The translations under genes were made by a program, and so were the position numbers. Shown in pieces: positions 1-30,256 of a stretch of DNA of 30,432 bases. Below the pieces are notes generated by a model. It ran no database searches and was not told where the DNA came from. It was given only the letters and a program-made list of their open reading frames with translations. The stretch's first letter is position 1. Each line of letters begins with the position of its first letter. This DNA comes from a plasmid. Where the stretch lies: sequence record NZ_CP034172.1. One strand, written 5' to 3'.

Positions 1-1058
1 GTCGTTTTCTTTGCTAAATGACGATAGAAATTTGAAGCTCACACAAAACCGATAAGGCATTTTATAAAAATGATGTTCGGCTCGAAATTTATTTGCCCGA
101 AGGGTTTAGGAGTGTCTGAAAAAATTATTGGAACTTGTGGAGATAATTTTTTAGAAACCCAAATAAATTTTTTTGCGTGGGATTTGAATTTCTAATTTTG
201 CATTCAGAAAACAACCTACAGTTGTCGGATATTGGAAAAGTAGCAAGCGTTCTGCGTTTCCGTGAAAAGTTGGGAAAACCGATTAGGGAACTTCTCCGAA
301 AACAAAAAATTACCACACACTAAATTCAAATTCCATCGTGGGGGCTTCCCGATTTTTGCCGATCAAAAAAGGTTGGGAAAAAGAAAATTGCGGTTCTTCC
401 TTTTTTCCGAAAGAATCACATTTTTAGTAAAATTATCCTTTTGCGCAATGGGTGAAGTGTTTTCCGGTGGAAGCTTTGCTGTAACGGAAAATCACGGAAC
501 GGAAAATGTAGCGAAAGGTTTATTTTGCGTTAAGAAAATGGGATTATGAGTGAAAAATAAAATCAGAAATACTTGATAAACGGAATGTGCCATTTCTGGC
601 CAAATGGAGTGTTCAATGTTTTTCGATTTTCAAAGGACTGCAATTTTTGTTAGCGGTGGCTTTGGTCGGCTAAAAATTGGGAATGGCGGTGGCTCTCTGT
701 CGCATAATTTTTCCGGATCTGCTCCTGCAGACTTGTAAAAATTTTTTCTATGCGAACATAAAACTTATCCTGGGGGAGCTGCAGCTTCGTTTTATGCGAC
801 AAAATGAAAGGGAAAAAAATTGTGGTTCTTCCTTTTTTCCGAAAGAATCACATTTTTAGTAAAACAATCCTGTGTGAAACTAAAGGTTTGTTTTGCGTTA
901 AGAAAATGGGATTGTGAGTGAAAAACAAATCACGGTCTTTGCCAAAATTGGAATGAATCGGTCTGAAAGTTCCAAGAAATTAAATGAATTGGACTGCAAG
1001 TAGAGAGAAGGGAAATTTTGGCTATGTCCGGGATTGAAGAACCACAATTTTTTGGCGT
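1..1058. repeat. Right-hand portion of a ~1.24 kb non-coding direct repeat. Matches 19353-20412, and together with 30257-30432 it forms a second full copy that wraps across the window ends. GC-richer than the flanks and has internal ~40-45 bp duplications.
   Basis: Positions 1-1040 match 19353-20393 apart from homopolymer length differences (for example t6 vs t7 near 160/19512 and a3 vs a4 near 323/19673). No long ORF; the small ORFs listed in the track look spurious. Internal duplicates at ~379-425 and ~818-865 (ggttcttccttttttccgaaagaatcacatttttagtaaaa) and at ~508-545 and ~888-925 (ttttgcgttaagaaaatgggattRtgagtgaaaaa). Confidence 0.85.
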
Positions 1059-1067
1059 GGGAATGTG

Positions 1068-2153
1068 CTATTTACCCGACTTAGTTCTGTTATCTAGTTT
1101 GCAAAGCATTTGACAATTTTCTTCTTCGGTCTTTCCGCCATCTCTCCAAGGAACAATGTGGTCTGCTTCCATATCTGAAATATCAAAATGATTATTACAT
1201 ATTAAGCAGATTCCTTTTTGTTTATCATAAATTTTTTGTTTTACAGTATCAGAAAAAGCTCGAATTCCAAGAAATTTTTCATCTCGGGTTAAAATGTAAG
1301 GATAGATTCCGCTTTTTCTTTCTACATCATCATCAGCTATTAACATTGCTACTTCGTTTTCAATTTCATCTGTATTGTAAACTACATCTTTATATTTATT
1401 ATAAAGTTTACCCCATTCAACGCCTTTCATAAACTTTTTCCTTTTAGTGGTAAAAGTTCCGTCAACCCAAGTAATAACCTCTTGAAAATAACGCCACAAT
1501 GGGCTAGCGTTTTGGTCTTTTTGGTGCTTAGCCATATAAATATCAATATTCCCGTTGGAAATCCAATCTATGGCAGTTTCCAAGTATTCTTGACGAATGG
1601 CAGAACCTGTCAAATAATCGCTTCCAATCTGTGAAGCAACACAACCATTTTTACTAAAATATCTTTTTGCATCCGAAACCCACGAACCCGAATAAACAGC
1701 GTTTCTTAATTCCTGTTTTGTGAGTTGCTTTCCGGCAATATTGATGGTTTCAAACCATTTTAATTTTTCTTTTTCGGTTCCTTCACAAAAATAGACCATC
1801 AATTTATAATCTAAAATATGGTCTTGTTCTTCGTGTGTAAGGTTATGGAAATACTTAAAGAAGTGCGCAAAATCGCCTTCAACAAACTGGCAAATTGATA
1901 TGGTGCGTTGTTGTCCGTCTATGACCTCGTAAGTTCCATCATCACGAACTGCCCAATACATCACATTCAAAGGAAAATTACTGGTTACCGTATCAATAAC
2001 GGCTGTCCTATCTTTGTCGCCATAAATAAACTCACGTTGGTAGGGTGGGCGTATATCCAATTTGCCACCATATCCCTTTACTCCATCATCCCCATTATCC
2101 TCATAGCCCTCTGTAAGTTCTCTAATGGAAATCTCGTGTAATTCTATTTTCAT
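1068..2153 (-). CDS. DUF262 (ParB/Srx-like, DGQQR motif) plus C-terminal HNH endonuclease. Candidate restriction or defense nuclease (GmrSD/SspE-like architecture, but with a classical zinc-ribbon HNH).
   Basis: Intact 361-aa ORF. N-terminal 'VIDGQQRT' ParB-like nuclease/NTPase motif typical of DUF262. C-terminal 'CLIC…ADHIVPWRDGGKTEEENCQMLCKLDN' is an HNH/His-Me finger with CxxC…CxxC. Lies immediately downstream of a DNA methyltransferase gene. Confidence 0.75.
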   Translation of the reverse strand: MKIELHEISIRELTEGYEDNGDDGVKGYGGKLDIRPPYQREFIYGDKDRTAVIDTVTSNFPLNVMYWAVRDDGTYEVIDGQQRTISICQFVEGDFAHFFKYFHNLTHEEQDHILDYKLMVYFCEGTEKEKLKWFETINIAGKQLTKQELRNAVYSGSWVSDAKRYFSKNGCVASQIGSDYLTGSAIRQEYLETAIDWISNGNIDIYMAKHQKDQNASPLWRYFQEVITWVDGTFTTKRKKFMKGVEWGKLYNKYKDVVYNTDEIENEVAMLIADDDVERKSGIYPYILTRDEKFLGIRAFSDTVKQKIYDKQKGICLICNNHFDISDMEADHIVPWRDGGKTEEENCQMLCKLDNRTKSGK

Positions 2154-2226
2154 AGTCGTTTGTTTTTAATAAATAATCGCGCATAAATATTTTTACCATT
2201 CAATAATGGTCTTGCATCTTTTTCAC

Positions 2227-3100
2227 CTAAAAAGGTATTCCAACAATATCTGCATCATACCCTGCTGAAGCTGACAACCCTTTTATTTCAAATTGTTGCG
2301 GATTAAACTTATCTAAAAATGTAATAGGAACACCTATTACGCCTTCAAAATTAATTGGAATGTCAATTGTTTTTGATACTTCAATAGCATCATAATTATC
2401 ATACTTTGGATATTCATCATTAGAATATTTTTAAAAAGAATTAAATCTTCGTGTCTTTTTGCAATATCTAAATTAGTATACCAAAAAGACCGTGCGGTTT
2501 CATACAAAGTTCCATCTGGTTTTTTGAAATGCCTTGCGCAATTATAACCAAGCCACATCTTATTTGATTTGATTGCTTCGAATGTTTCTTTGTATGAAAT
2601 TGCATTAATATTTCCAATAATCAAAAACTTTTTATCATATTCCAATAATTGTCCGATATATTCTCGGAATAAGGAATATGGCGGGTTAGTAACTACTATA
2701 TCTGCCTGCTTTAAGAGTTCTATACACTCCTTGCTCCTAAAATCTCCATCGCCTTTCAGTTCCTTTATTCCTATTTCATCGGGATTAGGAATGTTATCGC
2801 CATTCTTATCCCCGGTATATTCCAAATAAATAGCACTTTCAGAATCGTTTTGAGAAAATAAATCTGCATTTTGATTTTTATAGCAGGTAGTAATTAGTTT
2901 TTTAAGCCCTAATTTTTCAAAATTATAGGAAAAGTAATGGAAAAAATTGCTGATTCTAGGGTCATCACAATTGCATAAAACAACCTTACCTTTAAAATGT
3001 TTTTTATAATTTTTCAGTTCATTTTCAATGTCTGATAGCTGTGTATAAAATTCATCGTTTTTTTTGGATTTTGCTTTATGTAAATTTTTTGAACCGCCAT
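2227..3100 (-). CDS. EcoRI-family (gamma-class) N6-adenine DNA methyltransferase. As given it is broken by two 1-nt homopolymer frameshifts; the ORF-track fragment 2337-2825 is its middle part.
   Basis: Translation with frames joined: MA(V)…KNLHKAKSKKNDEFYTQLSDIENELKNYKKHFKGKVVLCNCDDP…IVVTNPPYSLFREY…SFWYTNLDIAKRHEDLILFK/KYSNDEYPKYDNYDAIEVSKTIDIPINFEGVIGVPITFLDKFNPQQFEIKGLSASAGYDADIVGIPF*. It carries the NPPY catalytic motif and a DEFYTQ N-terminus like M.EcoRI. Frame breaks fall in t6 at 3085-3090 (ATG at 3098-3100 is out of frame with the body) and in the a5/t5 run near 2431-2440. Adding one base in each run restores a ~290-aa protein ending at TAG 2227-2229. Confidence 0.7.
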
Positions 3101-3155
3101 TAAATTTTTATTTAGTACAAAAGTATTAATAATTTATTTCGAATTCTAACTGCGT

Positions 3156-3300
3156 TAGTGATTGTAGCTATTGTTGGAAATCCTTTTTTATAGTCGGAAA
3201 AAACATTTTAAAAAAAGAAAGTCCGAAAAATAAATTTCAGACTGGAAAAAAAGATTGACTGCGAAAAGCACGACCGAAAGGGAACGCCCAAATTTATTAA
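3156..3300. repeat. ~145-bp 'tail' element. A second copy at 20422-20568 directly abuts the 1.24 kb repeat there. Contains the TAGTCGGAAAAAACATTT box.
   Basis: About 95% identical to 20422-20568 (gttagtgattgtagcKattgttggaaatcc…agtcggaaaaaacattt…gtccgaaaaataaatttcagactg…gattgactgcgaaaagcacgaccgaaagggaacgcccaa). In this copy the repeat and the tail are separated by the 2.1 kb nuclease+methyltransferase cassette. Confidence 0.8.
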
Positions 3301-3479
3301 GATTCCTCCTTATCTCTCAAATTAGGTTTATAAAAATTAAAATAATAAATAAATGCACCTACAATAAAGCTTCCGCCATAAAAAATACTCTTCACTATCA
3401 TTGGAAACTGCAAAAGCAAATCCAACAACATAAAAATAAATAACGCTACAAAAACTGCTATTACTACATTCTTATTCAT
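3297..3479 (-). CDS. Small membrane protein, hypothetical (two predicted TM helices).
   Basis: 60-aa ORF, hydrophobic (VVIAVFVALFIFMLLDLLL…FIVGAFIYYF). Weak support. Confidence 0.3.
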   Translation of the reverse strand: MNKNVVIAVFVALFIFMLLDLLLQFPMIVKSIFYGGSFIVGAFIYYFNFYKPNLRDKEES

Positions 3480-3489
3480 ACCTAAAAAT

Positions 3490-3705
3490 TTAATCCTTTA
3501 AAGATTCCTCTTTCTCATTAACCATATCCAAAAGCTTGTTCACATTTAACCCTTTTTTCCTCATATACATCAAATATCTAATCGCTTTCGTATTTTCAAA
3601 ATTATTTTCAATGTAATAAATACCTTTGGCGTTACAACCAATGAACTCTGTAATCTTTGGAATATTAACTTTAATATTAAATTCCTTTCTAATTTTTATT
3701 CCCAT
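3490..3705 (-). CDS. Hypothetical small basic protein.
   Basis: 71-aa ORF in a region with no overlapping competitor. No recognisable motif. Confidence 0.3.
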   Translation of the reverse strand: MGIKIRKEFNIKVNIPKITEFIGCNAKGIYYIENNFENTKAIRYLMYMRKKGLNVNKLLDMVNEKEESLKD

Positions 3706-3881
3706 TTTTCAGCTCCATAAAAATTTTATACATATCATCTAAAAATGTTCTAAAAACGCTACTCCCAAGTTTGAACATAATGCAAATTTTATTATTCAAA
3801 TATAAGTAAATTTTCATATATTTAACTTCTTATTCATTAAATATCTAACAACCAAACGATTGTAAAATAAATTTTAAAAAA

Positions 3882-4667
3882 ATGAAAAAAGGAATTTTTT
3901 TGTCTTTTTTTTTAACATTTCAACTGTTTTTATCGCAAAAAAACACGGTTGAACAAGAAAATGGAGAATACTTTATCAAGCAAGACGAAAAATTTATTAA
4001 AGGATTGAAGAGTATAAATTCGAGCAGTGAAGAATTTATTTCGGAACTCGATTTAAGCACTTATAAGAATCGTTTTGCCTATCTGAACTTCAACACCAAA
4101 TTAAGCATAGACTATAACGAGGTTACTTATTCTTATGTGAAAAAATTTCTTTCCTACCGTTGGTATCCGAAAATAATAGGTTTGTCCGTTTACTATTTTC
4201 CTCTTTTTGAAAGCAAATTGGATTACTACGGAATTCCAAGGGAATTAAAGTATTTGGCTGTAGTAGAAAGCGCACTCAATCCAAGGGCGGGAAGTTGGGT
4301 AGGGGCAAGCGGACTTTGGCAGTTTATGCCCGCAACAGGAAATCAATACGGATTAACAAAAAATCAATACATAAACACATTTTATGATCCAATGAGTAAT
4401 GCGGATGCAGGCGCAAGATACTTGAGGGATTTGTATAGAATGTATGGCGATTGGAACCTAGCGATTTCCGCATATAATTGCGGACCCGGGAACGTTAACA
4501 AAGCCATTAGGCGAGCAGGAAGTAAAAATTATTGGACTTTAAGACCCTATCTGCCTAAAGAAACGCAAGCTTATGTACCAAGTTTCATCGCTGTAAACTA
4601 TCTATTTAATTTTTACAAAGAACACAAAATGAAGCCTTCTTATTTCCGATATTCTTTTTCGATTTGA
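3882..4667 (+). CDS. Secreted lytic transglycosylase (SLT domain, VirB1-like T4SS peptidoglycan hydrolase).
   Basis: Signal peptide MKKGIFLSFFLTFQLFLSQ. SLT motifs 'AVVESALNP', 'GASGLWQFMPATG' and 'AYNCGPGNVNKAI'. Confidence 0.8.
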   Translation: MKKGIFLSFFLTFQLFLSQKNTVEQENGEYFIKQDEKFIKGLKSINSSSEEFISELDLSTYKNRFAYLNFNTKLSIDYNEVTYSYVKKFLSYRWYPKIIGLSVYYFPLFESKLDYYGIPRELKYLAVVESALNPRAGSWVGASGLWQFMPATGNQYGLTKNQYINTFYDPMSNADAGARYLRDLYRMYGDWNLAISAYNCGPGNVNKAIRRAGSKNYWTLRPYLPKETQAYVPSFIAVNYLFNFYKEHKMKPSYFRYSFSI

Positions 4668-4849: not shown

Positions 4850-6307
4850 TTAATTGGTACTTGCAGTAGGTGAAATGGTAACACTAACTATATCGCCAGT
4901 ATTTGCTGTTCCTGTAATTTTCATTGTTAGATTAGAAATTCCAAGGTTTGCTCCTGACAAGAAAGCAACTTGATCTCCAGTAGTTTGCCAAATGTCGTTG
5001 TTTTTCTCAAATATAGTTGCTCCGGGTGCCAGGTTCTCATTATATGTTCTAGTAACATGAACAGAAGAAGTAGATGTTGTTATATCGTAGTTTAATTCAT
5101 ATTTAACTGCTGTAATTGTGGCACTACCACCAGCAATTAATTTGAATTTTCTTGAAAAGTTTTGTTGATATACTCTCCATCCTCCGGTTGGACTTGGAAT
5201 CGAGAAATGAACATTTCCTTCTTGCGTAACAGCAGTATCGAAATATATTGGTGCGGTAACTTTAATTTCAAATGTTTTTACCTCACTTTGATTTCCAAAC
5301 TCATCTTTAACTTGAATATTGTAAACATATGTACCTGCTACTAATGCATTCACATTCATTAAAAAACCTCCGTTAGAACCTAGAGTATAATTTGTATAGG
5401 TATTGTTGGTATTCTGAATTCCATTTACGTTAGAATTTGAAGCAGAAGATATCCATGTTTTATACTGAATATTAGTATTAGGATTTACAGGAGATTGGTT
5501 GATTATTCCAGAAAAAGCCATTTGAGTATTAATAGCAATGTTAGTTGGACTATAATTCATACTTTCAATAGTGATTGTTCTAGGCAATATGTTTTGCTGT
5601 ATTTCATAGTCCTTAGTTATTGTATTGTTTTTAATTGAATAGTTTAATTTTCCTCCTCCTGCTACATTAGTTTGCAATGACGTAGTGAAATTATCAATGT
5701 TTACAATATTATACCACGTTCCTAAAGTAGCAGCTACACCGTTCAATTTAACTTGACCATCATAGGTATTGAATTTAATTTGATAACCTGTTGTAGGTTG
5801 TCCAGATCCCGGTACAATTTTCATTACATAAACTGTTTCCATCCCTTGATAAATCGGACCCGATCCGCCCACATTTGTGTGTGAAAAATCTGAAATAGAG
5901 TAAGGCAATGTAAAATCTTCCTCTTTAGATGCTCCTTTCTCATTTTTAACGGAAATTTTAAGTTCGTGATTTCCGGCTACATTTCCTATATATTCGAAAA
6001 TATTATCTTTCGTAGTAAAGGTGTATTCTTGATTTGCAACAAGAGTTTCGCCATTTAGTTTAAGAGTTCCATTTAAACTGGTAGTGAATTTAAATGAAGT
6101 AGCAATAGAAGCAAAATCATAACTTGGCTTTATGTTAAATTTGAGCTGGTTTGTTTCTCCAACTGCCTTTTCAATAAAAGTAGCGTCTCTTTCAATGGTA
6201 AATCCAAATTGACCTCCATTTTCATTTCCCCATTCGCCATCTTCACGGCAGGAATTTATCAGAAAAACTGATAAAAAAGAAATCATAATAAAAAATATTT
6301 TTTTCAT
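4850..6307 (-). CDS. Large surface lipoprotein with repeated beta-rich (Ig-like) segments, hypothetical. Last gene of the tra block.
   Basis: 485-aa ORF. Lipoprotein signal 'FLINSC'. Ser/Thr/Asn/Gly-rich beta-strand-like composition. No catalytic motif seen. Confidence 0.55.
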   Translation of the reverse strand: MKKIFFIMISFLSVFLINSCREDGEWGNENGGQFGFTIERDATFIEKAVGETNQLKFNIKPSYDFASIATSFKFTTSLNGTLKLNGETLVANQEYTFTTKDNIFEYIGNVAGNHELKISVKNEKGASKEEDFTLPYSISDFSHTNVGGSGPIYQGMETVYVMKIVPGSGQPTTGYQIKFNTYDGQVKLNGVAATLGTWYNIVNIDNFTTSLQTNVAGGGKLNYSIKNNTITKDYEIQQNILPRTITIESMNYSPTNIAINTQMAFSGIINQSPVNPNTNIQYKTWISSASNSNVNGIQNTNNTYTNYTLGSNGGFLMNVNALVAGTYVYNIQVKDEFGNQSEVKTFEIKVTAPIYFDTAVTQEGNVHFSIPSPTGGWRVYQQNFSRKFKLIAGGSATITAVKYELNYDITTSTSSVHVTRTYNENLAPGATIFEKNNDIWQTTGDQVAFLSGANLGISNLTMKITGTANTGDIVSVTISPTASTN

Positions 6308-6917: not shown

Positions 6918-7602
6918 TTATCTGATAGCATCAGCGTTGATGATATACTTTGGTTTGATTTCCAATGTTAGGGTTCTTTCACCGTCAATTTCATTCATAA
7001 TGAAAAGCATTGTTTTATTGTCTGAAATATTAAATTTATCGAAAACATAAACTAATTTTTTACTTGACTTTTTTGAGAAATTTTCGGGTTGATTAGACCA
7101 AATGGGAACAAATATTTTTTCCTCCGTTTCTAATTGTCTGCGACCTGTCTGAATTGGGCTTGTAATGAAGGAAACGCTTTCTACATCATAATTGATATTT
7201 GTTCTGTTTGCTATTTCCAAAAGGACAAATAGTTTTCCGTTTCCTACATAGACACCTTTTACAAATCCTTCAATTCCTCTCACTAAAGCAGAATTCCTGT
7301 TTTTAATCCAACCTCCTTTTTCAATACTCTTTCGGCTGTAATTTCGTAATCTTCCTTAACAACTTCTTGTGCTAATGGTTGTTGAACAACTTCTGCAACA
7401 ACTTCTTTTTTTCTTCAGCAATTGGTTTTACTTCTTCTAATTTTGATTCAGCTTCAACTACCGCAATGGGCTTTTTAACCGTTGTTTTTTTCTTTACGGT
7501 TGTTGATTTCTTGACTGGCTTTTTATAAGTTTTTTTCTTGGTTTGCTGTGCAAATCCTAAAAAACCGAAAAGTAAAAAAGCGAATAACAAATATTTTTTC
7601 AT
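6918..7602 (-). CDS. traN: TraN-like conjugative transfer protein. Split into three frames by two 1-nt homopolymer frameshifts (ORF-track pieces 7372-7602 and 6918-7283).
   Basis: Joined translation: MKKYLLFAFLLFGFLGFAQQ…PIAEEKK/EVVAEVVQQPLAQEVVKEDYEITAERVLKK/GGWIKNRNSALVRGIEGFVKGVYVGNGKLFVLLEIANRTNINYDVESVSF…DGERTLTLEIKPKYIINADAIR. The C-terminal half resembles the Bacteroides TraN (DUF4138) C-terminus. Frame breaks are at t7 7405-7411 and t5 7317-7321 on the plus strand. Confidence 0.6.
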
Positions 7603-7613
7603 ATCATTTACTT

Positions 7614-8684
7614 TTAATTATAGTTTACTATTATACACTCAATATTGGTTGATAACTTAATTTTGTTGTCGGCTGTTCTGCTACCGTTATTTCTTACCGC
7701 TCCACCAATAATACCACCAATAACAGGAATTCTATTTGCCTGTTCCGCTATTACATCTTTCCCCCTGTTCGTTGCTTCGCTCCCTATATCGCTCCCATTA
7801 GAACCACCACCTATTGGAAGCCCCGCCATTCCATCTGAACCAAATAAAGTCATTTGCACCGGAACAATTTTATTTTTCACTTTAATAGTGGAAAAATTAA
7901 CCATAAGACGGTTGTTTTCCTCTCTCGCAATTCCTGTAATTACCAAACCTTTAGGGGTTGTTTCTCCTGCAATTTTTGTTGATTCCAAAAGCACAAAAGA
8001 TAGACTTCTGCCGTTAGATGCGTAACCTTGAGAAAGCAATTTTGCCCTAATTTGTTTTCCCTGTGATAAACTCTGCGTTGTACTAGCAATAGAGTTTGAA
8101 TAAGACGGTTCTTGATAGGTTGGCGTTGGAATTTCTGTATATTCGGGTTCAGAACTTTTTCTGTTTTCTTTGGTTGTTTTAGGCACATTTTTATTAGTGT
8201 AGCCAACGGAATTATTCTTCGGTTCTTCACTCTGCCACATAGAATAATCGCCATAAGTGGAATGCTTGTTGTATGAACCGCCACCGGAACTACTTTGAGG
8301 AGAAGAATAGGCAGGCTGTTGATATTCTGTGTTCGGGGAACTTGAATAATTAGGTTCGTAATAAGTGGTTGGCTCTTGATAAACAGGTGCTGTTTCTTGA
8401 CTCTCCCCAAAAAGATCGTCCATTGCGAGGTTTAAGTCCGCACTATCCTTTTTCCCCAAATTATTTGCTTCTGTTCGGCTGTTATATTTTGCAACTTCTT
8501 TAGCATCGGGGTTGGAAAAATCGGAAACCTCTTTTTCTGTGGAAGTGCTGTTAAATGCAATAACAAGCGCAAACAGTCCAACACAAACCACACCTGCAAT
8601 TGCATAGACAATAATTTTTCTACGCTCTGCATTGCTTTTATTATTCCAAAATTCTCTAATCTTTTCCATTTTAATTGGTAACAC
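7614..8684 (-). CDS. traM: TraM-like conjugative transfer protein (N-terminal TM, low-complexity linker, C-terminal beta domain).
   Basis: 356 aa. TM helix 'IIVYAIAGVVCVGLFALVIAF', then a Ser/Tyr/Pro/Gln-rich linker, then a C-terminal domain. Position between traK and traN. Confidence 0.65.
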   Translation of the reverse strand: MLPIKMEKIREFWNNKSNAERRKIIVYAIAGVVCVGLFALVIAFNSTSTEKEVSDFSNPDAKEVAKYNSRTEANNLGKKDSADLNLAMDDLFGESQETAPVYQEPTTYYEPNYSSSPNTEYQQPAYSSPQSSSGGGSYNKHSTYGDYSMWQSEEPKNNSVGYTNKNVPKTTKENRKSSEPEYTEIPTPTYQEPSYSNSIASTTQSLSQGKQIRAKLLSQGYASNGRSLSFVLLESTKIAGETTPKGLVITGIAREENNRLMVNFSTIKVKNKIVPVQMTLFGSDGMAGLPIGGGSNGSDIGSEATNRGKDVIAEQANRIPVIGGIIGGAVRNNGSRTADNKIKLSTNIECIIVNYN

Positions 8685-8828
8685 TTGGTTTGTTGTTGAT
8701 TTTCAAACTATCCTGTAAAATAACCTGTTCTTCCGTCGGTGCTGTTACTTTGCTCAATTTTTCCGTAAAATTGGTAATCAGAAAGCCGAAAGGATTATAA
8801 GGGTAATTGATGTTGGTTTTTGCCATTC

Positions 8829-9361
8829 TCAACTCAATGTCTGATCTAAAAATTCTTCATTTGTTCCGTTAATCCTTTTTACCAAAAGAGAAACTGAAAC
8901 ATTCGGGTTGGAATCAATGTTAGAAATGTTCCAAGTATCGTTCAAAATCTCAACTTTCTGTACTAGTCCGTTGATGGTCATAAAGTTTGAGTAATAGCCT
9001 TTATTCGCCTTATCTTTAATAATTTTTGTCGGTTGTTCCCCGACTAGCCACAAAACATTTTCTTTTTTCTCATTAATGCTGTATTGGTCTAAATCGTAAA
9101 ATTGTCTTACGAAAAATTCGGTTGCTCCCTGCACCTGTTTAACCTTGTCTTTTTGGCAGAAACTAGAGAAAGCGGAATCAAGTCGCCCTTATTATTGATA
9201 GTATATAATTTATTCCCTGCATCGCTGTAAACATAAAGTGCAAAATAAAGCATAGAAACAATTGCTACAACTGCTACAATAACCACGCCCCAAACGGTTC
9301 TGTTATTTTTTCTCAATTCGGAATAAATATTTTTTCCGACTGTAAGTTTTTTATCCTCCAT
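8829..9361 (-). CDS. traK: TraK-like conjugative transfer protein. Split by one 1-nt frameshift (pieces 9107-9361 and 8829-9134).
   Basis: The N-terminal fragment has a TM helix and '…KLYTINNKGDLIPLSLVSAKK'. The second fragment continues '(K)DKVKQVQGATEFFVRQFYDL…' when one A is added to the a5 run at ~9150-9154 (gccaaaaagaca). Same size and layout as Bacteroides TraK. Confidence 0.65.
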
Positions 9362-9368
9362 TTTAATT

Positions 9369-10175
9369 TTAATTAAAATAACTTCTCACTTCTTTAGTTA
9401 CAAATCCCATCAGTCCAATTTTCACTGCAAAAGCAACCAATAAAGCCCCTAATTCAGCTAGGAAAACTTTTGAAAATTCGGTTGTCAAAACAATTTCCGC
9501 CACACCCACATCAATTTTATTTGCCAAGGTATCATAAACTACTACACTAAATTTAATGATTGCGATATAGGCAATACCTAAAACAAATAATCCTATATAT
9601 ACCTTAATCCACCTGTATAACATATCCGACATTTTATCTAGTGTTGAAAATGCAATTGCCAAGGGAAAAATAAATTTGAAAAGTTGGATTAAAAACACTC
9701 TTTGAAGTAGGTACATTGATGTAATTGCTACATCTATTAAGTGTAAAAGACTAGCTACAAAATATAGGGCAATTGCACCCATATAGTTAGGCATTACTGC
9801 AAAGTAGAACGCAATCTTTTCTAATGCTCCCATATTTTCAGCAACTTCATTAATCAATTCCAATTGTCTAGCTGCAGGCGATATTGTGTTGTGGTTATTC
9901 ATCTGCGCCACATCCACTTCAATTCCGCTAAAAAGTTGCTCAATAGAATTAACAATAAAGTCGCTTCCCACAATGATTAACCCAAAACCAATGATATTGA
10001 TTAATCCGCCTATTGGCGGTCTTTCCTCGTTTTCTGCCGTTTGCAGAAAATGCCCCATTATTTTAAACAACAGAAAAGCCATTGCCAAGGATTTTGCCCC
10101 TGTTATAGTGTATGCAAAAATGGAATTGTTGTTTATTGCATTTTGAACGGAAGAAACCCAAGTGTAATCAATCAT
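9369..10175 (-). CDS. traJ: TraJ-like conjugative transfer protein (polytopic inner-membrane).
   Basis: 268 aa with at least six hydrophobic segments. ATGA overlap with the upstream gene. Position matches traJ. Confidence 0.65.
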   Translation of the reverse strand: MIDYTWVSSVQNAINNNSIFAYTITGAKSLAMAFLLFKIMGHFLQTAENEERPPIGGLINIIGFGLIIVGSDFIVNSIEQLFSGIEVDVAQMNNHNTISPAARQLELINEVAENMGALEKIAFYFAVMPNYMGAIALYFVASLLHLIDVAITSMYLLQRVFLIQLFKFIFPLAIAFSTLDKMSDMLYRWIKVYIGLFVLGIAYIAIIKFSVVVYDTLANKIDVGVAEIVLTTEFSKVFLAELGALLVAFAVKIGLMGFVTKEVRSYFN

Positions 10176-10672: not shown

Positions 10673-13107
10673 TTATTTATTAATATATTGCTTAATAGCA
10701 GTTTCCATATCACCTAAATCTTCATAAAGACTCATTAATTCTTGATTCTGCTTGCCTTCTGTCTGATAAGCCCAATACACTTCTATTGGAACTTCTAGCC
10801 TGTAAACTTGGTGGTGGTTTCCTCGCATCAAAAACACTTCTGAATACTTTCTTTCTCCCTCAAAATTGGAAGAAATGGAAACCATTTGGTTATAGGCATG
10901 TTCCGACATTTTGAAGCGTTCCTGCAATGCTTTGTAGTCTTTGGCATTAAGAACATAGAGAACCTGTGTATTTTCAATAATAGTTTTTGCGATTTGTCCG
11001 TTCTCTCCCGATTCGGGAAGTTGGGAAATTGCTTGGAGAACCATTCCAATTGCTCCGTTTTGTTTTCTAATTGCTTGGTAGAAATATTCGATTTTCTCTA
11101 AAACCCCCTTGAATTTAAATTGCTTTGCAACTTCATCAAAGAATATATATCCCCTTGTACTTTTATCTTTCCAAACCGTTTCGTTAATGGTTGTGGAAAT
11201 AAGTTGAAGCATAATAGAAAGTAAAAGTTCGTTTTCTTTCACTTCGTCCAATTCAAAAACTATAATTTTTTTATCTCTAACCTTTTCTAAATTATCGTTA
11301 CTCTCGTCTTGGTAGAGAAATTCATAAATTCCTCCTTTCTCAAACTCAGACATTAAAAAAAGGAATTTTTCTATATCAAAATAATCATCCTTTATTTCCA
11401 AATCTTTAAGCAAGGTATCTTTACCCTCTTTTACCGCTTGAATAAACTTCAATAAACTTGGTTCTCCACCTCGTTTATAGTATGCTTCCATAATCTTACG
11501 AAGTGCCGTTTTTTCGCTCTCTGTGGTCGATTCCCCACGTTTATAGTGGGTAAGAATAAATTCTACCAAATCTTCAATTTTTGAGCTGGTCAATTCCTCG
11601 CCTTGCAAATCGAATGGATTAAGCCCTATTGGTTTGCCCTCTTGATAGTGGATAAAAGCGGTTTCTTCGGGATATAAGGCAGATAATTTGCGGTAGGATT
11701 GCCCCAAATCAACAATTACAATTCTTGCCCCCTCGTCAAAATACTGTCTGAATAAATGGTTTGCCAAAAACGATTTCCCATAACCTGTTGGCGCAAAAAT
11801 CATAAAGTTTCTAGCTCTGATATATTTTTTTTCTTCATCCCACGTATCAACAGTAATTGGCAGATTTGAAATTCTTGAATTTAAAATAATGCCCTGTTTG
11901 TCGTTTTTATAATTGGTTGTGTCGTTAAAAAATATAGTAGCAAGGTTTAAATTCCCATAAAATAATTGCCTGTCCGCAAAATTGTTGGCAAAAAGGAAGA
12001 ATGAATTATGAAAAATAGAGTTTAAATAATTATCTATCGGCTGTCTTGTCTTAATATCAAGTTCTTTAAACCTATCTACAATCTGATTTTTCTTTGCCCT
12101 CAAATCATTTTCGTTGTCTGCATAATAAAGTACATTCAAATGAGCTTTAATTATTCTATCGCCATCAATATTATCTGCAATTTCTTCAATTAGTTTCTTT
12201 GTCTTTGTAGCGTTGGATTTGTTATTTGGGTCAAAGTTTGCAGATTTGTTAAGCAAATCGTTTCGGGTTCTTAACTTGTTCAACTGCTCTTGGTTATCTT
12301 CAAAGAAAATAATCTGATTATAAACGTGGTCAAAATCTAGGGAAATTCCGAACATTTCACCGTAATTTTGATAGAACTTATATTTAGCACTTGAAAAATC
12401 CTTGTCGGTTACTACATCGGCAAATTTTTCGGGAAAACTCTCTTCATCCCTTGTGCAAACTGCGCCTACAAACTTATCTCCAACCTGCAAATAACCTTTC
12501 CGCAAAATACGGTCAGTTACATAGTCTTTTTGCAGATTATTGAAATAAAAATCGTAATATTCGTAAACTTCCTTTTCAGTAAATTTTCTAATATTGAAAG
12601 CTCTACCGGAATTAATTTTTATTCCTCGAATAAAATTAATGGACTGCTCTACGCTAGCCGTGAACGATTCAATATTTTCATCAAATTTTTCAAACTTTTT
12701 TCTGTTAAGTGTTTTGAATGGATTTGAAATTTTGGTTTGAAAAGTTCCGTTATCGGGAAGAACGAAAAACAAAAAGCATTTGTGCGACAAATATTCTCTA
12801 CCCTTAAAATATTCTTTTGTGCTTTTTTGAAGAAAACTATCAGCCCTATAATGCGAGGTGTCGAGTTTCTCTCTCAAAAAACATCCTGTTTAACTAATAT
12901 TGAATCTTTAGGTAGGTCTTTAAGAGCTTTAACCCAAGCTTCATTAATAACTTCAAAATCCTCTTTCCCAAGAGAATATTTTTCCGCTAACTCAACTTCA
13001 TAGCACATAGCAAAAACACCGTTTTTGCCAACCGTCTTATTATCTTCAATATGTAGAAATACACTATTATTCATCATCAGAACGTTTAGTAGGTAGTTTG
13101 TCATCAA
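10673..13107 (-). CDS. traG: TraG, VirB4-like conjugative ATPase. Its N-terminal 77-aa ORF (12874-13107) and 734-aa ORF (10673-12877) are separated by a 1-nt frameshift.
   Basis: Walker A 'FMIFAPTGYGKSFLANH'. '…IVIVDLGQSY' and the large size fit the VirB4/TraG family. The 77-aa piece (…KDSILVKQDVF*) fuses in frame (QDVF-L-REKLDTSHY…) if the run at 12875-12880 (a6 on plus strand) is one base longer, giving about 811 aa. Confidence 0.8.
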
Positions 13108-13330
13108 ACAAAAAATGAATTATTTTATCATTGCTTGACAAAGCGACAGAGATCAGATAACTAATCCCAATGATAATAGCAACGACAATAATTTTTGTTA
13201 AGGAAAATCCTCCTAAAAAGGAAAGCAGGCACACAAGGGCAATCGCAATGAAAATGAAAAATCCCAAAGTATTCATTCCGTATATCAACGGCTTTTTCCT
13301 GTAACCCTTAAAGTTCTTAATTTCCTTCAT
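13067..13330 (-). CDS. traF: TraF-like small membrane protein (DUF4133-type).
   Basis: 87 aa with two TM segments. Immediately downstream of traE and overlapping the start of traG. Confidence 0.6.
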   Translation of the reverse strand: MKEIKNFKGYRKKPLIYGMNTLGFFIFIAIALVCLLSFLGGFSLTKIIVVAIIIGISYLISVALSSNDKIIHFLFDDKLPTKRSDDE

Positions 13331-13334
13331 AATT

Positions 13335-13625
13335 TTAAACCGTCATATTTGCCACATACGCAATCAGTCCTTGAATAGCCCCAAGAACGGCTGCGAATAT
13401 TACAATATTTGTTACCCCTGCTTTCCAATCGCCATTTTCTTTGGCAAACTTCCCTAAATTGGCTAAAATAACCACCACAAAAATAGCAACGGCAACATAA
13501 GGGAAAACCCCTCTGATTTCATTAGCCAATTGCTGTGCAGGACCTTTTAAATTGATTTGTGCAAAGGAATTTGCATAAATTAGAAACGTTCCTGCAATCG
13601 CTAATAAGTGCTTCTGTTTTTTCAT
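13335..13625 (-). CDS. traE: TraE-like small membrane protein (DUF4134-type). First gene of the tra operon in this window.
   Basis: 96 aa, signal/TM plus two further TM helices. Preceded by a conserved promoter-like 40-mer. Confidence 0.6.
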   Translation of the reverse strand: MKKQKHLLAIAGTFLIYANSFAQINLKGPAQQLANEIRGVFPYVAVAIFVVVILANLGKFAKENGDWKAGVTNIVIFAAVLGAIQGLIAYVANMTV

Positions 13626-18177: not shown

Positions 18178-19149
18178 TTACAAATTTTCTAAATATTTTT
18201 TTGCTTTTTTGGATTGGATAAAAGCGTTTTTAATATTCTCAATTCGATTTTCTTTGTTAGTATCTGACCAACCTTTTAAATATCTAATCGAATTAATTAG
18301 TTCGCTTGAAATTCCATTTTGAAGGCAAATTAACATAGAACCCATTTCCGCTATCAGCTCTTCAAAGGAATATTTTTCTTTATCAGAAAAACCATCTTTT
18401 AAATTTCTGTTTAGTCTAGATTCGTGACCTGTCCAATGTATAATTTCGTGAAACATTGTACTGTAAAATTTATCTTCACTGATAAAAAATCTTTTTTCCG
18501 GCATCATGATTTTATCAAATCTTGGAGAATATGCTCCGGTACTTTTTTTGACAAATTCTAAAACTAGATTTCCTTTTTCGATTACAGAATTTACAAAGGA
18601 TTCACAATTTTCTTTATTCTGAAATTCTAGTTCTTCGGGTTCGTCAATGGAAATATTTAAATTTATTTCCTCTATATTTTCAATCTGATTTGAATTAAAA
18701 ACTACATAATTTTTAATGCAAGGAATTTTTACAATTTTCTTTAATTGGTCGCCTGATAAATTTTGTAATTCTTCATAAGTATATTTTTTTCCTGTTTCGG
18801 AATCCTTATAAATGAAACTAAAAAATTCTATTACCGTTCCTTTTGAACCTTTTTTTAATTTTCCGCCTGCTTTAGAAATGGCGTTGAAAGTAGCGTAAAA
18901 ACTAGAGGTGTAGCCGTTAAATAAAGTATCAATATAAAGTGCTAATAAATTGAATCCTTGATAAGCTTTTTGCGTGAATAAATTTCTAGGTTCTTGAAAT
19001 TTAAAGTTAGTGTAGGTTTCCCATTCGCTGGCTTTTACCTTATCTAAATTTTCTAAAATTTTTGTAATAAATTTATCTTCTTTTGGTTGCGAGTTGGAAG
19101 ATGTTTTGTAATTTGTTTTTGCTGTTTTTTTTGTGGCAGTTGCATTCAT
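18178..19149 (-). CDS. ardC: ArdC-like antirestriction protein (N-terminal ssDNA-binding DUF1738-type domain plus C-terminal zincin-like metalloprotease).
   Basis: 323 aa. C-terminal 'STMFHEIIHWTGHESRLNR' is the HExxH zincin motif characteristic of ArdC. Located next to the oriT/mob region. Confidence 0.75.
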   Translation of the reverse strand: MNATATKKTAKTNYKTSSNSQPKEDKFITKILENLDKVKASEWETYTNFKFQEPRNLFTQKAYQGFNLLALYIDTLFNGYTSSFYATFNAISKAGGKLKKGSKGTVIEFFSFIYKDSETGKKYTYEELQNLSGDQLKKIVKIPCIKNYVVFNSNQIENIEEINLNISIDEPEELEFQNKENCESFVNSVIEKGNLVLEFVKKSTGAYSPRFDKIMMPEKRFFISEDKFYSTMFHEIIHWTGHESRLNRNLKDGFSDKEKYSFEELIAEMGSMLICLQNGISSELINSIRYLKGWSDTNKENRIENIKNAFIQSKKAKKYLENL

Positions 19150-19175
19150 AATTTTAAATTTTTAATATTTATTTA

Positions 19176-20412
19176 TATATTGTAGTTAATTAAGTATTTA
19201 ATTCTTTTATTTATTCGGTATCGAGGAAACGTGTTTTTTTTTAAAGTGGTAGTTTTTTGTTTTCGGGGAATAGTTTTCCCTTCGTGTTTTTTCGGCTTTT
19301 TTCGGGAATGTCAAAGAACGCTCTGCTTTTCTTTATTCGTATAACTGAGGTGTCGTTTTCTTTGCTAAATGACGATAGAAATTTGAAGCTCACACAAAAC
19401 CGATAAGGCATTTTATAAAAATGATGTTCGGCTCGAAATTTATTTGCCCGAAGGGTTTAGGAGTGTCTGAAAAAATTATTGGAACTTGTGGAGATAATTT
19501 TTTTAGAAACCCAAATAAATTTTTTTGCGTGGGATTTGAATTTCTAATTTTGCATTCAGAAAACAACCTACAGTTGTCGGATATTGGAAAAGTAGCAAGC
19601 GTTCTGCGTTTCCGTGAAAAGTTGGGAAAACCGATTAGGGAACTTCTCCGAAAACAAAAAATTACCACACACTAAAATTCAAATTCCATCGTGGGGGCTT
19701 CCCGATTTTTGCCGATCAAAAAAGGTTGGGAAAAAGAAAATTGCGGTTCTTCCTTTTTTCCGAAAGAATCACATTTTTAGTAAAATTATCCTTTTGCGCA
19801 ATGGGTGAAGTGTTTTCCGGTGGAAGCTTTGCTGTAACGGAAAATCACGGAACGGAAAATGTAGCGAAAGGTTTATTTTGCGTTAAGAAAATGGGATTAT
19901 GAGTGAAAAATAAAATCAGAAATACTTGATAAACGGAATGTGCCATTTCTGGCCAAATGGAGTGTTCAATGTTTTTCGATTTTCAAAGGACTGCAATTTT
20001 TGTTAGCGGTGGCTTTGGTCGGCTAAAAATTGGGAATGGCGGTGGCTCTCTGTCGCATAATTTTTCCGGATCTGCTCCTGCAGACTTGTAAAAATTTTTT
20101 CTATGCGAACATAAAACTTATCCTGGGGGAGCTGCAGCTTCGTTTTATGCGACAAAATGAAAGGGAAAAAAATTGTGGTTCTTCCTTTTTTCCGAAAGAA
20201 TCACATTTTTAGTAAAACAATCCTGTGTGAAACTAAAGGTTTGTTTTGCGTTAAGAAAATGGGATTGTGAGTGAAAAACAAATCACGGTCTTTGCCAAAA
20301 TTGGAATGAATCGGTCTGAAAGTTCCAAGAAATTAAATGAATTGGACTGCAAGTAGAGAGAAGGGAAATTTTGGCTATGTCCGGGATTGAAGATCAACAA
20401 TTTTTTGGAGTG
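19176..20412. repeat. Complete internal copy of the ~1.24 kb non-coding direct repeat.
   Basis: 19176-19352 matches 30257-30432 and 19353-20393 matches 1-1040. GC visibly higher than the flanks. No credible ORF. Contains the TATGCGAACATA box at 20100-20111 and internal duplications. Confidence 0.85.
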
Positions 20413-20421
20413 GAAATATAC

Positions 20422-20568
20422 GTTAGTGATTGTAGCGATTGTTGGAAATCCTTTTTTTATAGTCGGAAAAAACATTTAAAAAAAAAAGTCCGAAAAATAA
20501 ATTTCAGACTGAAAAAAAAGATTGACTGCGAAAAGCACGACCGAAAGGGAACGCCCAATTTAATCTTC
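20422..20568. repeat. Second copy of the ~145-bp tail element (see 3156-3300).
   Basis: About 95% identical to 3156-3300. Includes the TAGTCGGAAAAAACATTT box at 20452-20488. Confidence 0.8.
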
Positions 20569-21444
20569 ATATCCAAAATTCAAATTGTTAGAAAAAACAA
20601 ACTCGTCAATTTCTTTAATTGATTTACTTCCTAAATTTCTAAATTTCCACAAATCTTTTTTATTTAATCGAATTAAATCTTCTATTGTTAAAATATTACT
20701 CCCCTTTAATGAATTAATAGTTCTATTACTCAATGAAAACTCAATATCATCAATAAATTTATCTAACATTGGATTTCTAGGCTCTTTAGGGATTTCGGGT
20801 TTTACATTCAATTGATGTTCTAATATTTTGACTTTAGTATGAAGTTCATTAAAATGTTTTTTGGAATAATTAACCTGTCTTAAAGTGTTTTTTAAGTGCT
20901 TATTTAGACGTTTCTGAAAATCAAAAACTATTTGACTAACTCTATCTTTTGAAAGGTTATATTCATAAGAAATATCGTGTAGAGATTTTTTATGAATATA
21001 ATGCATCAATAGAATTTCTTGATGTCTAGGAGTAATAATATTAAATAAATAAGAAATATGAATAATGAGTTGTAAAGAATCATTCAACAAAGAAAAATCT
21101 AAATTTATTGCATCGGAATATTCTAAAAATTTAAAATCTGCTTTTTCGTAATTATCCCAAAATTCATTGGCGAAAATATAAACGATCCCCTTATTGGTAG
21201 TAGTTTGAAAAAAAGAAATGATTTTTGTTTCGATAAAATATTTGTTAAATACATTTCGACTAATGCCAATGTTATTGCAAAACTCTTTAAGTCTTATTGG
21301 TTGTTCATTTATGATTCGCTCAACTAGAGAAGCATTTTTTAGAATAAATGTACAACTTCGAGTATCTAAATTTAATTTATTTGCAACTAAAACTTCAAGT
21401 GTTCTAGAAGGTTCAATTTCCAAAATTTTAGTAGTTTCTTGCAT
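20560..21444 (-). CDS. Transcriptional regulator with a sigma-70 region-4-like HTH and a C-terminal RNA-polymerase alpha-subunit CTD-like (helix-hairpin-helix) domain.
   Basis: 294 aa. 'RHQEILLMHYIHKKSLHDISYEYNLSKDRVSQIVFDFQKRLNKHL' looks like sigma region 4. 'SLSNRTINSLKGSNILTIEDLIRLNKKDLWKFRNLGSKSIKEIDEF' parallels RpoA aCTD '…[45 protein letters not shown]'. Confidence 0.55.
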   Translation of the reverse strand: MQETTKILEIEPSRTLEVLVANKLNLDTRSCTFILKNASLVERIINEQPIRLKEFCNNIGISRNVFNKYFIETKIISFFQTTTNKGIVYIFANEFWDNYEKADFKFLEYSDAINLDFSLLNDSLQLIIHISYLFNIITPRHQEILLMHYIHKKSLHDISYEYNLSKDRVSQIVFDFQKRLNKHLKNTLRQVNYSKKHFNELHTKVKILEHQLNVKPEIPKEPRNPMLDKFIDDIEFSLSNRTINSLKGSNILTIEDLIRLNKKDLWKFRNLGSKSIKEIDEFVFSNNLNFGYED

Positions 21445-24160: not shown

Positions 24161-24441
24161 AGTGTAGGTGTATACTTATTAAGAGTGTAGGTATATCCTT
24201 ATAATCTACTCTTAAACGGTGTAGGTCTATACTGTATATTCAATTAAAGAGTGTAGGTCTATACTTCACTATCAGTGTAGGTCTATACTTAAGCGGTGTA
24301 CCTTTATACTTAAACGGTGTACCTTTATACTTATACGGTGTAGGTCTATACTTAAACGGTGTACCTTCATACTTAAATGGTGTAGGTGTATGCTTAAACG
24401 GTGTATGTCTGTACTTAATTAGTGTAGTGCTATAATTAATT
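24161..24441. repeat. Iteron array: about 12 direct repeats, consensus GGTGTAGGTCTATACTTAAAC, with eight units in strict 21-bp phasing. Probable vegetative replication origin.
   Basis: Read directly. Units start at 24161, 24184, 24218, 24250, 24274, 24295, 24316, 24337, 24358, 24379, 24400 and 24421. Contiguous with no spacers. AT-rich stretch on the 5' side. Adjacent to the Rep gene. Confidence 0.85.
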
Positions 24442-24486
24442 AAGTACTTTTCAGTTCTGTAAACACTTTCTCATACAGAAAACCAC

Positions 24487-25545
24487 CTAAATTCTTAATT
24501 TCTTCTCCAGCTTCATTATTGAACCAGATCTTTTGCCTATAAACTTAGATTCCTTGTTATCATAATGCTGGTTAAAGGTAACGGCTTTGTTAAATCTATT
24601 AAACATATTTTCCTGCCCTATCCTCTGCAATAAAAATAATATCTGACTTTCAGTCAAGCCATAGGCTAAAAACGATTTTAATGCTGTTTGATGCACTTCC
24701 GAGAGATTGTTTATGTCGAGGCGTTTTTGAAATTTAAAGTGTAAATTAGTAATCTTTCTACCAACTTTAACGGTTTCATAGGAAATATGGGAAATATCTA
24801 ATTTCTCGTTCGAATTGAAATCGTTTATTGCAGGATCCAGGAACACTCTTTTAAATTCTGACCAACGAGCAAGATATTCTACTCTTTCATAATCGGGAGA
24901 AATTTCTTTTGTGTCAAATAAAAACTTCAGTTGCAGTTGTTTTGTAGTTTCACTCTTGTTCTTTTCGTTTTTATAAACAATAAACCCCAACAAAACCTTT
25001 AGCTCTTCAAGAGAAACCCTGTAAATTCCAGTTGCTTTGAATTGGGAAAGCAATTCAAACAACTTTTTTCTTTTGTCGCCCTTTAAGTCAATAATACTAC
25101 TCTCAATTTGGGTATACTGAACCCTTGTTTTGTTAGCATATTCTAAAGCGTGTTTTTCATAAAAGAAAATCTTACCCCATTTAGCAAATCTTACAATAAA
25201 TTCATTGGCATCTTCATCACTTACAGAAACACTATCAATAACATTAAAAAACTCGGTGATCTTTGTTTGCGTGTTGTAGAAAACTCCGTTAATGTGTATC
25301 AAGCCTGAACATATTTCCAAAAGTTCAGAAACTGAATAGAAACTGTTTTTCTTTACATTCTTATACTCTAGAAACTTATTGTAATTAAAGATTATTTCTT
25401 CCTCTGGGTTGGGATCACGAAAATTTATTAACGTTTGCAGATAGTAGATTATATCTTTCTGCATTTCCGTAACTCCCCTCATTACGCTCTGCGTAAAGAA
25501 ATTGGATTGTAATAAATAGTTTGAGTTTTTATCTGTGGACTTCAT
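24487..25545 (-). CDS. repB: Plasmid replication initiator (RepB / Rep_3-like, iteron-binding).
   Basis: 352 aa. N-terminal 'NYLLQSNFFTQSV…MQKDIIYYLQTLIN' resembles the Rep_3 initiator N-terminus. Directly adjacent to the iteron array. Confidence 0.65.
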   Translation of the reverse strand: MKSTDKNSNYLLQSNFFTQSVMRGVTEMQKDIIYYLQTLINFRDPNPEEEIIFNYNKFLEYKNVKKNSFYSVSELLEICSGLIHINGVFYNTQTKITEFFNVIDSVSVSDEDANEFIVRFAKWGKIFFYEKHALEYANKTRVQYTQIESSIIDLKGDKRKKLFELLSQFKATGIYRVSLEELKVLLGFIVYKNEKNKSETTKQLQLKFLFDTKEISPDYERVEYLARWSEFKRVFLDPAINDFNSNEKLDISHISYETVKVGRKITNLHFKFQKRLDINNLSEVHQTALKSFLAYGLTESQILFLLQRIGQENMFNRFNKAVTFNQHYDNKESKFIGKRSGSIMKLEKKLRI

Positions 25546-26403: not shown

Positions 26404-26901
26404 TTATTTTAAACTTCCCTTAAAATCTTTCAATAACTGCTCTATAAAATCATCTTTAGTGTAGTTTGTAGAAAGAAAGTCACCGTCTTTATTGATATTC
26501 TTTGAATACATAAAGTCGTAAATAAATTCCCTATCAACAGCCGAAATTCTACAGCTTGTAAAAACACGTTCTGTCTTGGTAGAATTAGACCGTTTTCCTC
26601 TGCGAGTTGGAATAACTCCGTTAGGTCGTAAAGGCAAATCTTTATATTTATTTCGCATTATCTCTATACCATCCCTAATCACATCCGAAACGCAATAATG
26701 AAAGTCATCTTTTCTTTTTATAGCTTCAATCTCTCTCAATTGTTCAACGACTTGCATTTGAAGTAAAAAGGAGAAAGTAACATTATTTATTAATGAAGTT
26801 TCTTCGATCTGTTGTTTAGGTTCTTGGTGTGGTTGCTCCTGTAACTCCGCTACCTTTCCCCACGCTTCCGCCATTTTCTCTGCTGCACTTTTATTTTTCA
26901 T
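26404..26901 (-). CDS. Hypothetical protein immediately downstream of parA, translationally coupled. Possible partition adaptor or TraB-like partner.
   Basis: 165-aa ORF, ATGA overlap with the parA stop at 26901. Confidence 0.45.
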   Translation of the reverse strand: MKNKSAAEKMAEAWGKVAELQEQPHQEPKQQIEETSLINNVTFSFLLQMQVVEQLREIEAIKRKDDFHYCVSDVIRDGIEIMRNKYKDLPLRPNGVIPTRRGKRSNSTKTERVFTSCRISAVDREFIYDFMYSKNINKDGDFLSTNYTKDDFIEQLLKDFKGSLK

Positions 26902-30028: not shown

Positions 30029-30238
30029 TTAATGGGTTAAAATAAATTGTAGTGTGTGTGGTTCAGAATTTTTGATGGCTTGAATAAATGGGAGATATTC
30101 ATAGGCAAAAAGGACTTCGCATAGTTCCTTAAAATCTCTGTAGCCGTGCGCTTGAATTTCATTTAAACAACTTTGATAAGTGTTAAAAATCGGTTCAAGG
30201 TTCAAAAGGTCTTTTTTTAGTTCGTCTGAATTTTTCAT
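30029..30238 (-). CDS. Hypothetical small protein.
   Basis: 69-aa ORF. Upstream region similar to the ardC upstream region (TTGTAGTTAA box). Confidence 0.4.
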   Translation of the reverse strand: MKNSDELKKDLLNLEPIFNTYQSCLNEIQAHGYRDFKELCEVLFAYEYLPFIQAIKNSEPHTLQFILTH

Positions 30239-30256
30239 AATTTATATATTTAGTTA

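Follow-up and report, generated by a model that had tools for sequence, protein, structure and literature searches.

A probable restriction-modification cassette pairing an EcoRI-family methyltransferase with a DUF262-HNH nuclease on a Chryseobacterium-type conjugative plasmid

We analysed the entire 30,432-bp plasmid record NZ_CP034172.1, which we refer to as the window. Close to its start lies an insert of about 2,085 bp (1069-3153, minus strand) made up of a promoter-like leader, an EcoRI-family N6-adenine methyltransferase (methylase) gene and a gene for a nuclease that joins a DUF262/GmrSD_N domain to an HNH domain. The insert sits in one copy (copy A) of a duplicated non-coding block and is absent from the other (copy B). 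A first-pass annotation of this DNA had described a co-oriented two-gene cassette in one repeat copy only, and both self-BLAST of the window and its open reading frames (ORFs) bear this out.

The nuclease gene (1068-2153, minus strand), delineated by ORF, Pfam and PADLOC analyses, is intact and encodes 361 residues. Its DUF262/GmrSD_N domain, which is ParB/sulfiredoxin-like, spans residues 34-154 (1692-2054, minus strand; Pfam E-value 1.2e-19) and holds the motif DGQQR at residues 79-83 (IDGQQR at 78-83), encoded at 1905-1919. A beta-beta-alpha-metal nuclease domain of the HNH type occupies residues 316-359 (1077-1208, minus strand; Pfam E-value 6e-12), so the nuclease homology expected of the ~361-residue protein was recovered in the profile search. 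The Pfam scan matched GmrSD_N, HNH (PF01844) and HNH_5 and returned no match to DUF1524 in the nuclease. Across alignments covering two clades of about 41% identity, DGQQR, D331-H332, N346, N355, C316, C319 and C351 were invariant and C347 nearly so; C316, C319, C347 and C351 are the predicted zinc ligands of the HNH domain. The PADLOC model REase_II (PDLC03418) covered the whole protein, aligning residues 1-361 with model positions 1-372 (E=3e-130). An AlphaFold model reached a mean predicted local distance difference test (pLDDT) score of 84 with an alignment that included the second, 387-residue clade, and only 46 with a shallow alignment (72-91% identity). Sequence search of the PDB found no whole-protein resemblance, with matches confined to the HNH domain, and an exact-protein look-up of the window nuclease found nothing. 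The ratio of nonsynonymous to synonymous substitution rates (dN/dS) was 0.11 against the homologous locus L029 and 0.08 against a second one, L001 (Logan ERR14830711); the comparison of the window with L001 shows purifying selection still acting on the nuclease.

Immediately upstream, the methylase gene (2150-3100, minus strand) encodes 317 residues once repaired, and is broken by three -1 frameshifts as assembled. The repaired protein matched the whole EcoRI_methylase profile (PF13651, 4e-124) as well as the PADLOC model MTase_II (PDLC03297, 3.6e-115), and its NPPY motif is encoded at 2676-2687. With PF03235, PF01844 and PF13651 all matched, the earlier domain calls of DUF262 plus HNH and of an EcoRI-family NPPY methylase are upheld. 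Compared with the true M.EcoRI encoded beside R.EcoRI on small Escherichia coli plasmids, the methylase was 52.7% identical by tblastn and 56% in a multiple alignment. Its TGA stop codon overlaps the nuclease ATG (ATGA), and at the other end of the pair the stop codon of the nuclease (1068-1070) borders directly on the repeat junction. The leader inside the insert, read from the sequence, is 53 bp long (3101-3153, minus strand) and includes a GAATTC site at 3141-3146. The -7 promoter consensus in Bacteroidota is TAnnTTTG; TACTTTTG (3118-3125, minus strand), 17 nt ahead of the methylase ATG, fits it and is a putative promoter of the cassette.

The insertion geometry could be read directly from the two copies of the block. 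The main part of copy A, which is non-coding and has internal sub-repeats, aligned with copy B over 1-1064 versus 19352-20417 at 99.4%, and its continuation over 30232-30432 versus 19152-19351 at 97%. As 30232-30432 and 1-1064 join into copy A, the record wraps its origin and covers the whole of a circular, 30,432-bp molecule. Copy B (19152-20562), immediately upstream of ardC, is uninterrupted; its 1.27-kb part and a tail of 143-145 bp are contiguous, GGAAATATAC being followed at once by GTTAGTGATTG, so that 20417-20421 represents the "empty site". In copy A, about 2,085 bp (1069-3153) stand between these parts. The copy A tail (3154-3296, minus strand), with a terminator-like hairpin at 3243-3220 on the minus strand, matches 20421-20562, and self-BLAST aligned 3153-3296 with it at 95.9%. 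The trinucleotide TGC is found at either edge of the insert (1066-1068 and 3151-3153), and its boundaries are therefore ambiguous by 3 bp. The duplicated unit thus measures 1.41 kb and encloses the cassette, which is placed between the 1.27-kb part and the 145-bp tail. The earlier placement of the insertion "at the edge of the repeat" holds only roughly, the cassette being internal to the 1.41-kb block, with limits 1069-3153.

The description of this junction as mutation-rich proved accurate: a patch at 1041-1067 carries 6 substitutions between copies A and B, whereas the 1,215 bp before it contain no substitution and differ by just 2 homopolymer indels. In copy A alone, 814-831 and 1036-1053 form a perfect 18-nt inverted repeat (2 mismatches in copy B). 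This repeat is created by two of the six substitutions, which hints at a templated change.

The gene pair was found to be common. The homologue search returned at least 8,000 nuclease homologues; the matches listed all carry PF03235 and PF01844, and many of them, from Gammaproteobacteria, Flavobacteriia and various metagenomes, are 72-76% identical to the window protein. When representatives at 50% identity were searched exhaustively, 493 clusters were found at E<1e-30. An EcoRI-family methylase gene lies immediately upstream of the nuclease gene in about 20 of 23 genomic loci (at least 10 phyla), and the two genes thus share their context in relatives. In a tblastn search of annotated plasmids, among them those from Macrococcoides, Aeromonas, Sulfitobacter, Gordonia, Variovorax, Lactiplantibacillus and Enterococcus (Bacillota, Actinomycetota and Pseudomonadota), many matches overlapped a gene annotated as "adenine-specific methyltransferase EcoRI family protein"; in four inspected plasmid or genome regions, a "DUF262 domain-containing protein" directly follows the methylase. 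Members of the nuclease family are 60-75% identical across phyla, the ATGA stop/start overlap is present in both the window and Kangiella, and the 387-residue clade, at about 41% identity, has the same methylase partner. NCBI and UniRef names for these proteins are generic, NCBI using "GmrSD restriction endonuclease domain-containing protein". Fusions of DUF262/COG1479 to HNH nucleases were already noted in a 2013 survey of defence systems (PMC3632139). The claim that this is an unusual restriction-modification (R-M) or defence architecture consequently fell, given the end-to-end REase_II match, the number of homologues and the recurrent upstream methylase. By its sequence relationships, the pair is an ordinary member of a widespread, computationally catalogued R-M type and not an unusual design.

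Together, these results support that the insert is a compact two-gene R-M cassette of a widespread conserved family, consisting of an EcoRI-family gamma-class N6-adenine methyltransferase and a translationally coupled DUF262-HNH nuclease, a reading to which we assign a probability of about 0.72. A methylase gene, an adjacent but separate nuclease gene and linkage across unrelated hosts, three of the marks by which PADLOC/REBASE-style rules call a Type II system, were found. That the linkage is conserved and translationally coupled speaks for protection by methylation, as in a Type II-like system, and against a modification-dependent enzyme of the GmrSD type. In the mechanism that we propose, the methylase would mark host and plasmid DNA at an adenine within a short recognition site, probably a palindrome. 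The nuclease, in which a helical middle region connects the N-terminal DUF262 domain with the zinc-bound HNH domain at the C-terminus, would cut unmarked sites with an HNH centre formed by D331-H332, N346 and N355. By analogy with BrxU, GmrSD and SspE, the DUF262 domain with its invariant DGQQR nucleotide-binding motif probably binds or hydrolyses a nucleoside triphosphate (NTP), gating cleavage. The cassette was most likely acquired or exchanged by homologous recombination through the conserved flanks, and the diverged 27-bp patch and the tail may be donor DNA imported with it or may mark the limit of a later gene conversion between copies A and B.

Several observations weigh against this reading. 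In literature and PDB sequence searches the nuclease family had no biochemically characterised member, no solved structure and no published recognition site, and sequence-specific cleavage blocked by methylation is consequently something we infer from gene linkage. In L001 and L002, the closest relatives, which come from separate sequencing runs (ERR14830711 and ERR14830712), the nuclease is 99% identical and intact and the methylase is cut to its last third, beside hipBA. These two loci, together with L015, a locus in a metagenome-assembled genome (MAG) of Phototrophicaceae, indicate that the nuclease is able to exist without an EcoRI-family methylase. The methylase gene of the window shows 3 indels in 951 bp, versus about 0.8 expected from the homopolymer discrepancies between the repeat copies (Poisson p ~0.05). 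At the ends of the insert, we found no terminal inverted repeats or convincing target duplication, and gain of the cassette in copy A and its loss from copy B are indistinguishable on present evidence.

The first of the competing accounts is that the system has decayed: the three frameshifts would be real, leaving an intact DUF262-HNH nuclease beside a dead methylase, a state that could be tolerated through another host methylase acting at the same site, through non-expression of the nuclease or through conditional nuclease activity. The first frameshift (3085-3090, minus strand) lies in a run of 6 in which 7 would restore MAVQKNLHKAK; the second (2428-2432, minus strand) in a run of 5 in which 6 would restore LILFKKYSNDEYPKY (LILFKKYSNDEY); and the third (2229-2233, minus strand) in a run of 5 in which 6 would restore IVGIPFLGEKDARPLL (IVGIPFLGEKD), a region where the homologous stretch of L001 is in frame. 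All three are thus single-base deletions within homopolymer runs of 5-6 identical bases, and homopolymer-length discrepancies of this pattern are typical of long-read consensus errors. The repeat copies, otherwise identical over 1.2 kb, differ there in homopolymer length only and served as a ruler, giving 2 discrepancies per 54 runs of at least 5 bases. There are 21 such runs in the methylase gene versus 12 in the nuclease gene, and the methylase is therefore more exposed to these errors; no indel was found in the nuclease gene, whose frame is intact (about 0.4 expected). By this ruler the excess of indels in the methylase is mild.

Genes needed for partition and transfer are frameshifted in the same record. 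The ParA gene (26901-27655, minus strand) is split at about 27530, where TTGGAC is read as TTGAC (KKVLLIDL/DSQCNLS). TraN/DUF4138 is split in at least 2 places, the TraK-like gene is split, and the N-terminus of TraG/VirB4 is in another frame; the frameshifted core-gene regions besides ParA are 6918-7614, 8684-9369 and 12780-13340, all on the minus strand. Such splits in core plasmid genes suggest either an error-prone assembly, in homopolymers and indels, or a decaying plasmid. Because ParA, TraG, TraN and TraK are also frameshifted and the repeat copies differ internally by homopolymer length, the methylase frameshifts are no less likely to be assembly errors than to reflect decay. The surplus of indels, the truncated methylases beside a near-identical nuclease in L001 and L002, the partnerless nuclease of L015 and the purifying selection on the nuclease nevertheless speak for decay. 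We regard decay of the window methylase as a possible but less likely account. Apparent decay of a single gene should be weighed against the frameshift load of the entire record.

The relatives that bear on this point have features of their own. The methylase remnant of L001/L002 represents another allele, with a DNA identity of about 80%. In L001 (148-1679 and 1838-2206), a hipA/helix-turn-helix (hipBA-like) module abuts this remnant upstream of the nuclease, an arrangement that points to recombination where methylase and nuclease genes meet. In L015, a 259-residue unrelated ORF (5225-6004) that had no Pfam match precedes an intact nuclease homologue with a 4-bp overlap, and the nuclease locus lies in a low-GC island of a high-GC genome.

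The second competing account reverses the polarity of acquisition: the cassette would once have been present in both copies or in the ancestral block, and copy B would have lost it by precise deletion or gene conversion. L001 has exactly the same nuclease-stop-to-repeat junction as the window, with a different left side; being shared with a different element, this junction is older than the present arrangement of this plasmid, which favours loss, as does the lack of transposition signatures at the flanks of the insert. Against this stand the clean copy B, without a cassette remnant at 20417-20421, and the Chryseobacterium plasmids that have the leader upstream of ardC but not the cassette. Loss from copy B is a real possibility, if a less likely one, and acquisition or exchange through the conserved flanks is the route that we prefer. 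The suggestion that the junction is a recombination hotspot gained no support from the searches made: one other element with the same nuclease-side junction was found, L001, and neither of two metagenome scans detected the junction motifs.

The tail of the block contains a further similarity. Its positions 3163-3188 are 85% complementary over 26 nt to the 3' coding region of the methylase (2229-2254), in copy B as well, and its plus strand reads AIVGNPFL followed by a stop, resembling DIVGIPFL in the methylase. As a candidate inverted methylase remnant, this match was judged borderline (rough chance estimate ~0.04) and may be due to chance.

As for recognition specificity, the similarity to M.EcoRI makes GAATTC a natural guess, and a GAATTC-like site had been proposed. 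In a multiple alignment, however, the variable regions differ among the methylases of these cassettes. The same operon, encoding a 75%-identical nuclease, is found on the Kangiella aquimarina chromosome, and for its methylase, M.Kaq16071ORFDP, the table entries of the SMRT survey by Blow et al. 2016 give a predicted GAATTC motif that was not detected, the comment "possibly active" and no nuclease partner (PMC4752239). With no GAATTC methylation detected for this homologue in one published methylome, the proposed specificity loses ground. For the same strain, these entries list an unassigned palindromic N6-methyladenine motif, AGTACT (56%) (PMC4752239), which we take as a lead rather than as an assignment. 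Attempts to derive the site from palindrome avoidance were set aside, since the statistics of flanks, cassettes and window were all uninformative: the observed/expected ratio of GAATTC was 1.2 in 152 kb of homologous-locus flanks, the window has 9 GAATTC versus 13.5 expected and 2 AGTACT versus 3.3 expected, and 19 cassettes have 0 AGTACT versus 4.6 expected, yet nine other palindromes are absent from them too. The Kangiella operon (CP140158.1; locus L032, 3970-9063) is flanked by serine recombinase (Resolvase) and DUF6538 genes, which suggests a small mobile island.

A more specific and rather improbable extension of the R-M reading can be framed on this basis. DUF262-HNH nucleases with EcoRI-like methylases might form a large restriction family, without a biochemically characterised member in the searches made here, whose nuclease would be gated by nucleotide binding in its ParB-like domain and so not constitutively lethal alone, and whose site would be other than GAATTC, for example AGTACT. 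If cleavage were nucleotide-gated, this would account for intact, selectively maintained nuclease copies beside truncated or frameshifted methylases, as in L001 and perhaps on this plasmid.

Finally, a Type IV nuclease of the GmrSD kind, directed against modified DNA and standing beside an unrelated orphan methylase, would fit the N-terminal GmrSD_N match, the NCBI name of the homologues and the lack of a nuclease partner for the Kangiella methylase in the 2016 REBASE-based table entries, but is highly improbable, as overlapping or near-abutting linkage kept across phyla and across two 41%-identical clades is unexpected for a chance neighbour, the C-terminal domain is a classical HNH (PF01844) and not DUF1524, and the whole protein falls in the PADLOC Type II REase model.

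As a whole, the circular 30.4-kb molecule is a conjugative plasmid of Weeksellaceae/Chryseobacterium type. It encodes a Rep3-type initiator with iterons, ParA, a resolvase, TraG, TraM, TraN, TraQ-like and TraK-like proteins, a coupling protein, a DUF5712 relaxase-like protein, a lytic transglycosylase, SSB and ArdC. The ardC gene noted in the first-pass annotation was confirmed at 18178-19149, with ArdcN and zincin peptidase domains. Weak plasmid DNA matches were to Chryseobacterium plasmids, and megablast of positions 1-4000 against plasmids found nothing. In Chryseobacterium plasmids, unannotated DNA preceding ardC is homologous to the 1.27-kb block; in the window, its two copies stand ahead of genes of leading-region type, copy B before ardC and copy A before an operon of small ORFs that closes with ssb. 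The block (30232-30432 plus 1-1064, and 19152-20417) has no Rfam match and no convincing ORF, and may be a regulatory or single-stranded DNA element of the leading region; Rfam and tRNA scans of the window found nothing. Its sub-repeats pair 381-439 with 813-871 and 507-561 with 875-929.

Other features lie further from the cassette. About nine tandem 21-bp iterons resembling GTGTAGGTCTATACTTAAACG (24254-24442) stand beside the Rep3-type initiator gene (24487-25545) and are likely the replication origin. An AT-rich 44-nt motif, ATATTTATTTATAnATTGTAGTTAA, is present in 5 copies (19151, 27640, 28672, 29685 and 30232), upstream of ardC, ParA and other minus-strand ORFs, and looks like a shared promoter or operator element, putative as that assignment is. 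Directly upstream of repeat copy B in the direction of transcription, 20560-21444 encodes a 294-residue protein that combines sigma-70 region 4 with an RNA polymerase alpha C-terminal domain, an odd combination for a plasmid gene.

For this plasmid, the cassette is of little consequence, being one more mobile R-M cassette on a conjugative plasmid with an anti-restriction gene, ardC. The wider family is worth some attention: it is abundant, its HNH nuclease is fused to a ParB-like domain that probably binds NTPs, and copies persist without the methylase.

Comparison with known systems places the two genes as follows. The methylase is a full-length homologue of M.EcoRI, of the same Pfam family and with the NPP[YF] motif, but the partner and the gene order differ from the EcoRI system. 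R.EcoRI, of about 277 residues, is encoded upstream of its methylase (R then M), whereas the order in the window is M then R. R.EcoRI is a PD-(D/E)XK enzyme; the window nuclease matches DUF262 and HNH models only. The nuclease shares an N-terminal DUF262 domain and the (I/V)DGQQR motif with the GmrSD family. In contrast to GmrSD, BrxU and SspE, which combine DUF262 with DUF1524 (EHxxP), it has a zinc-bound classical HNH domain, is about 200 residues shorter and is tied to a conserved methylase partner; this partner implies that the nuclease would be blocked by modification rather than dependent on it. Similarity to KpnI, Hpy99I, PacI and McrA falls within the HNH module only, and none of these enzymes is known to carry a DUF262/ParB-like N-terminal domain. 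Annotated pairs of this type (PADLOC models REase_II and MTase_II), among them those on Macrococcoides canis plasmid pMiCAN82a, the Kangiella aquimarina chromosome and Lactiplantibacillus pentosus plasmid pBGM48-4, match the window pair in gene content, order and orientation, and their frames overlap or abut; their nucleases are 60-76% identical over the full length and their methylases 54-66% identical. The window pair differs from them in that its methylase is frameshifted as assembled and its host replicon is a Bacteroidota conjugative plasmid, and compared with the Kangiella and Macrococcoides methylases its methylase has a shorter central and a different C-terminal variable region.

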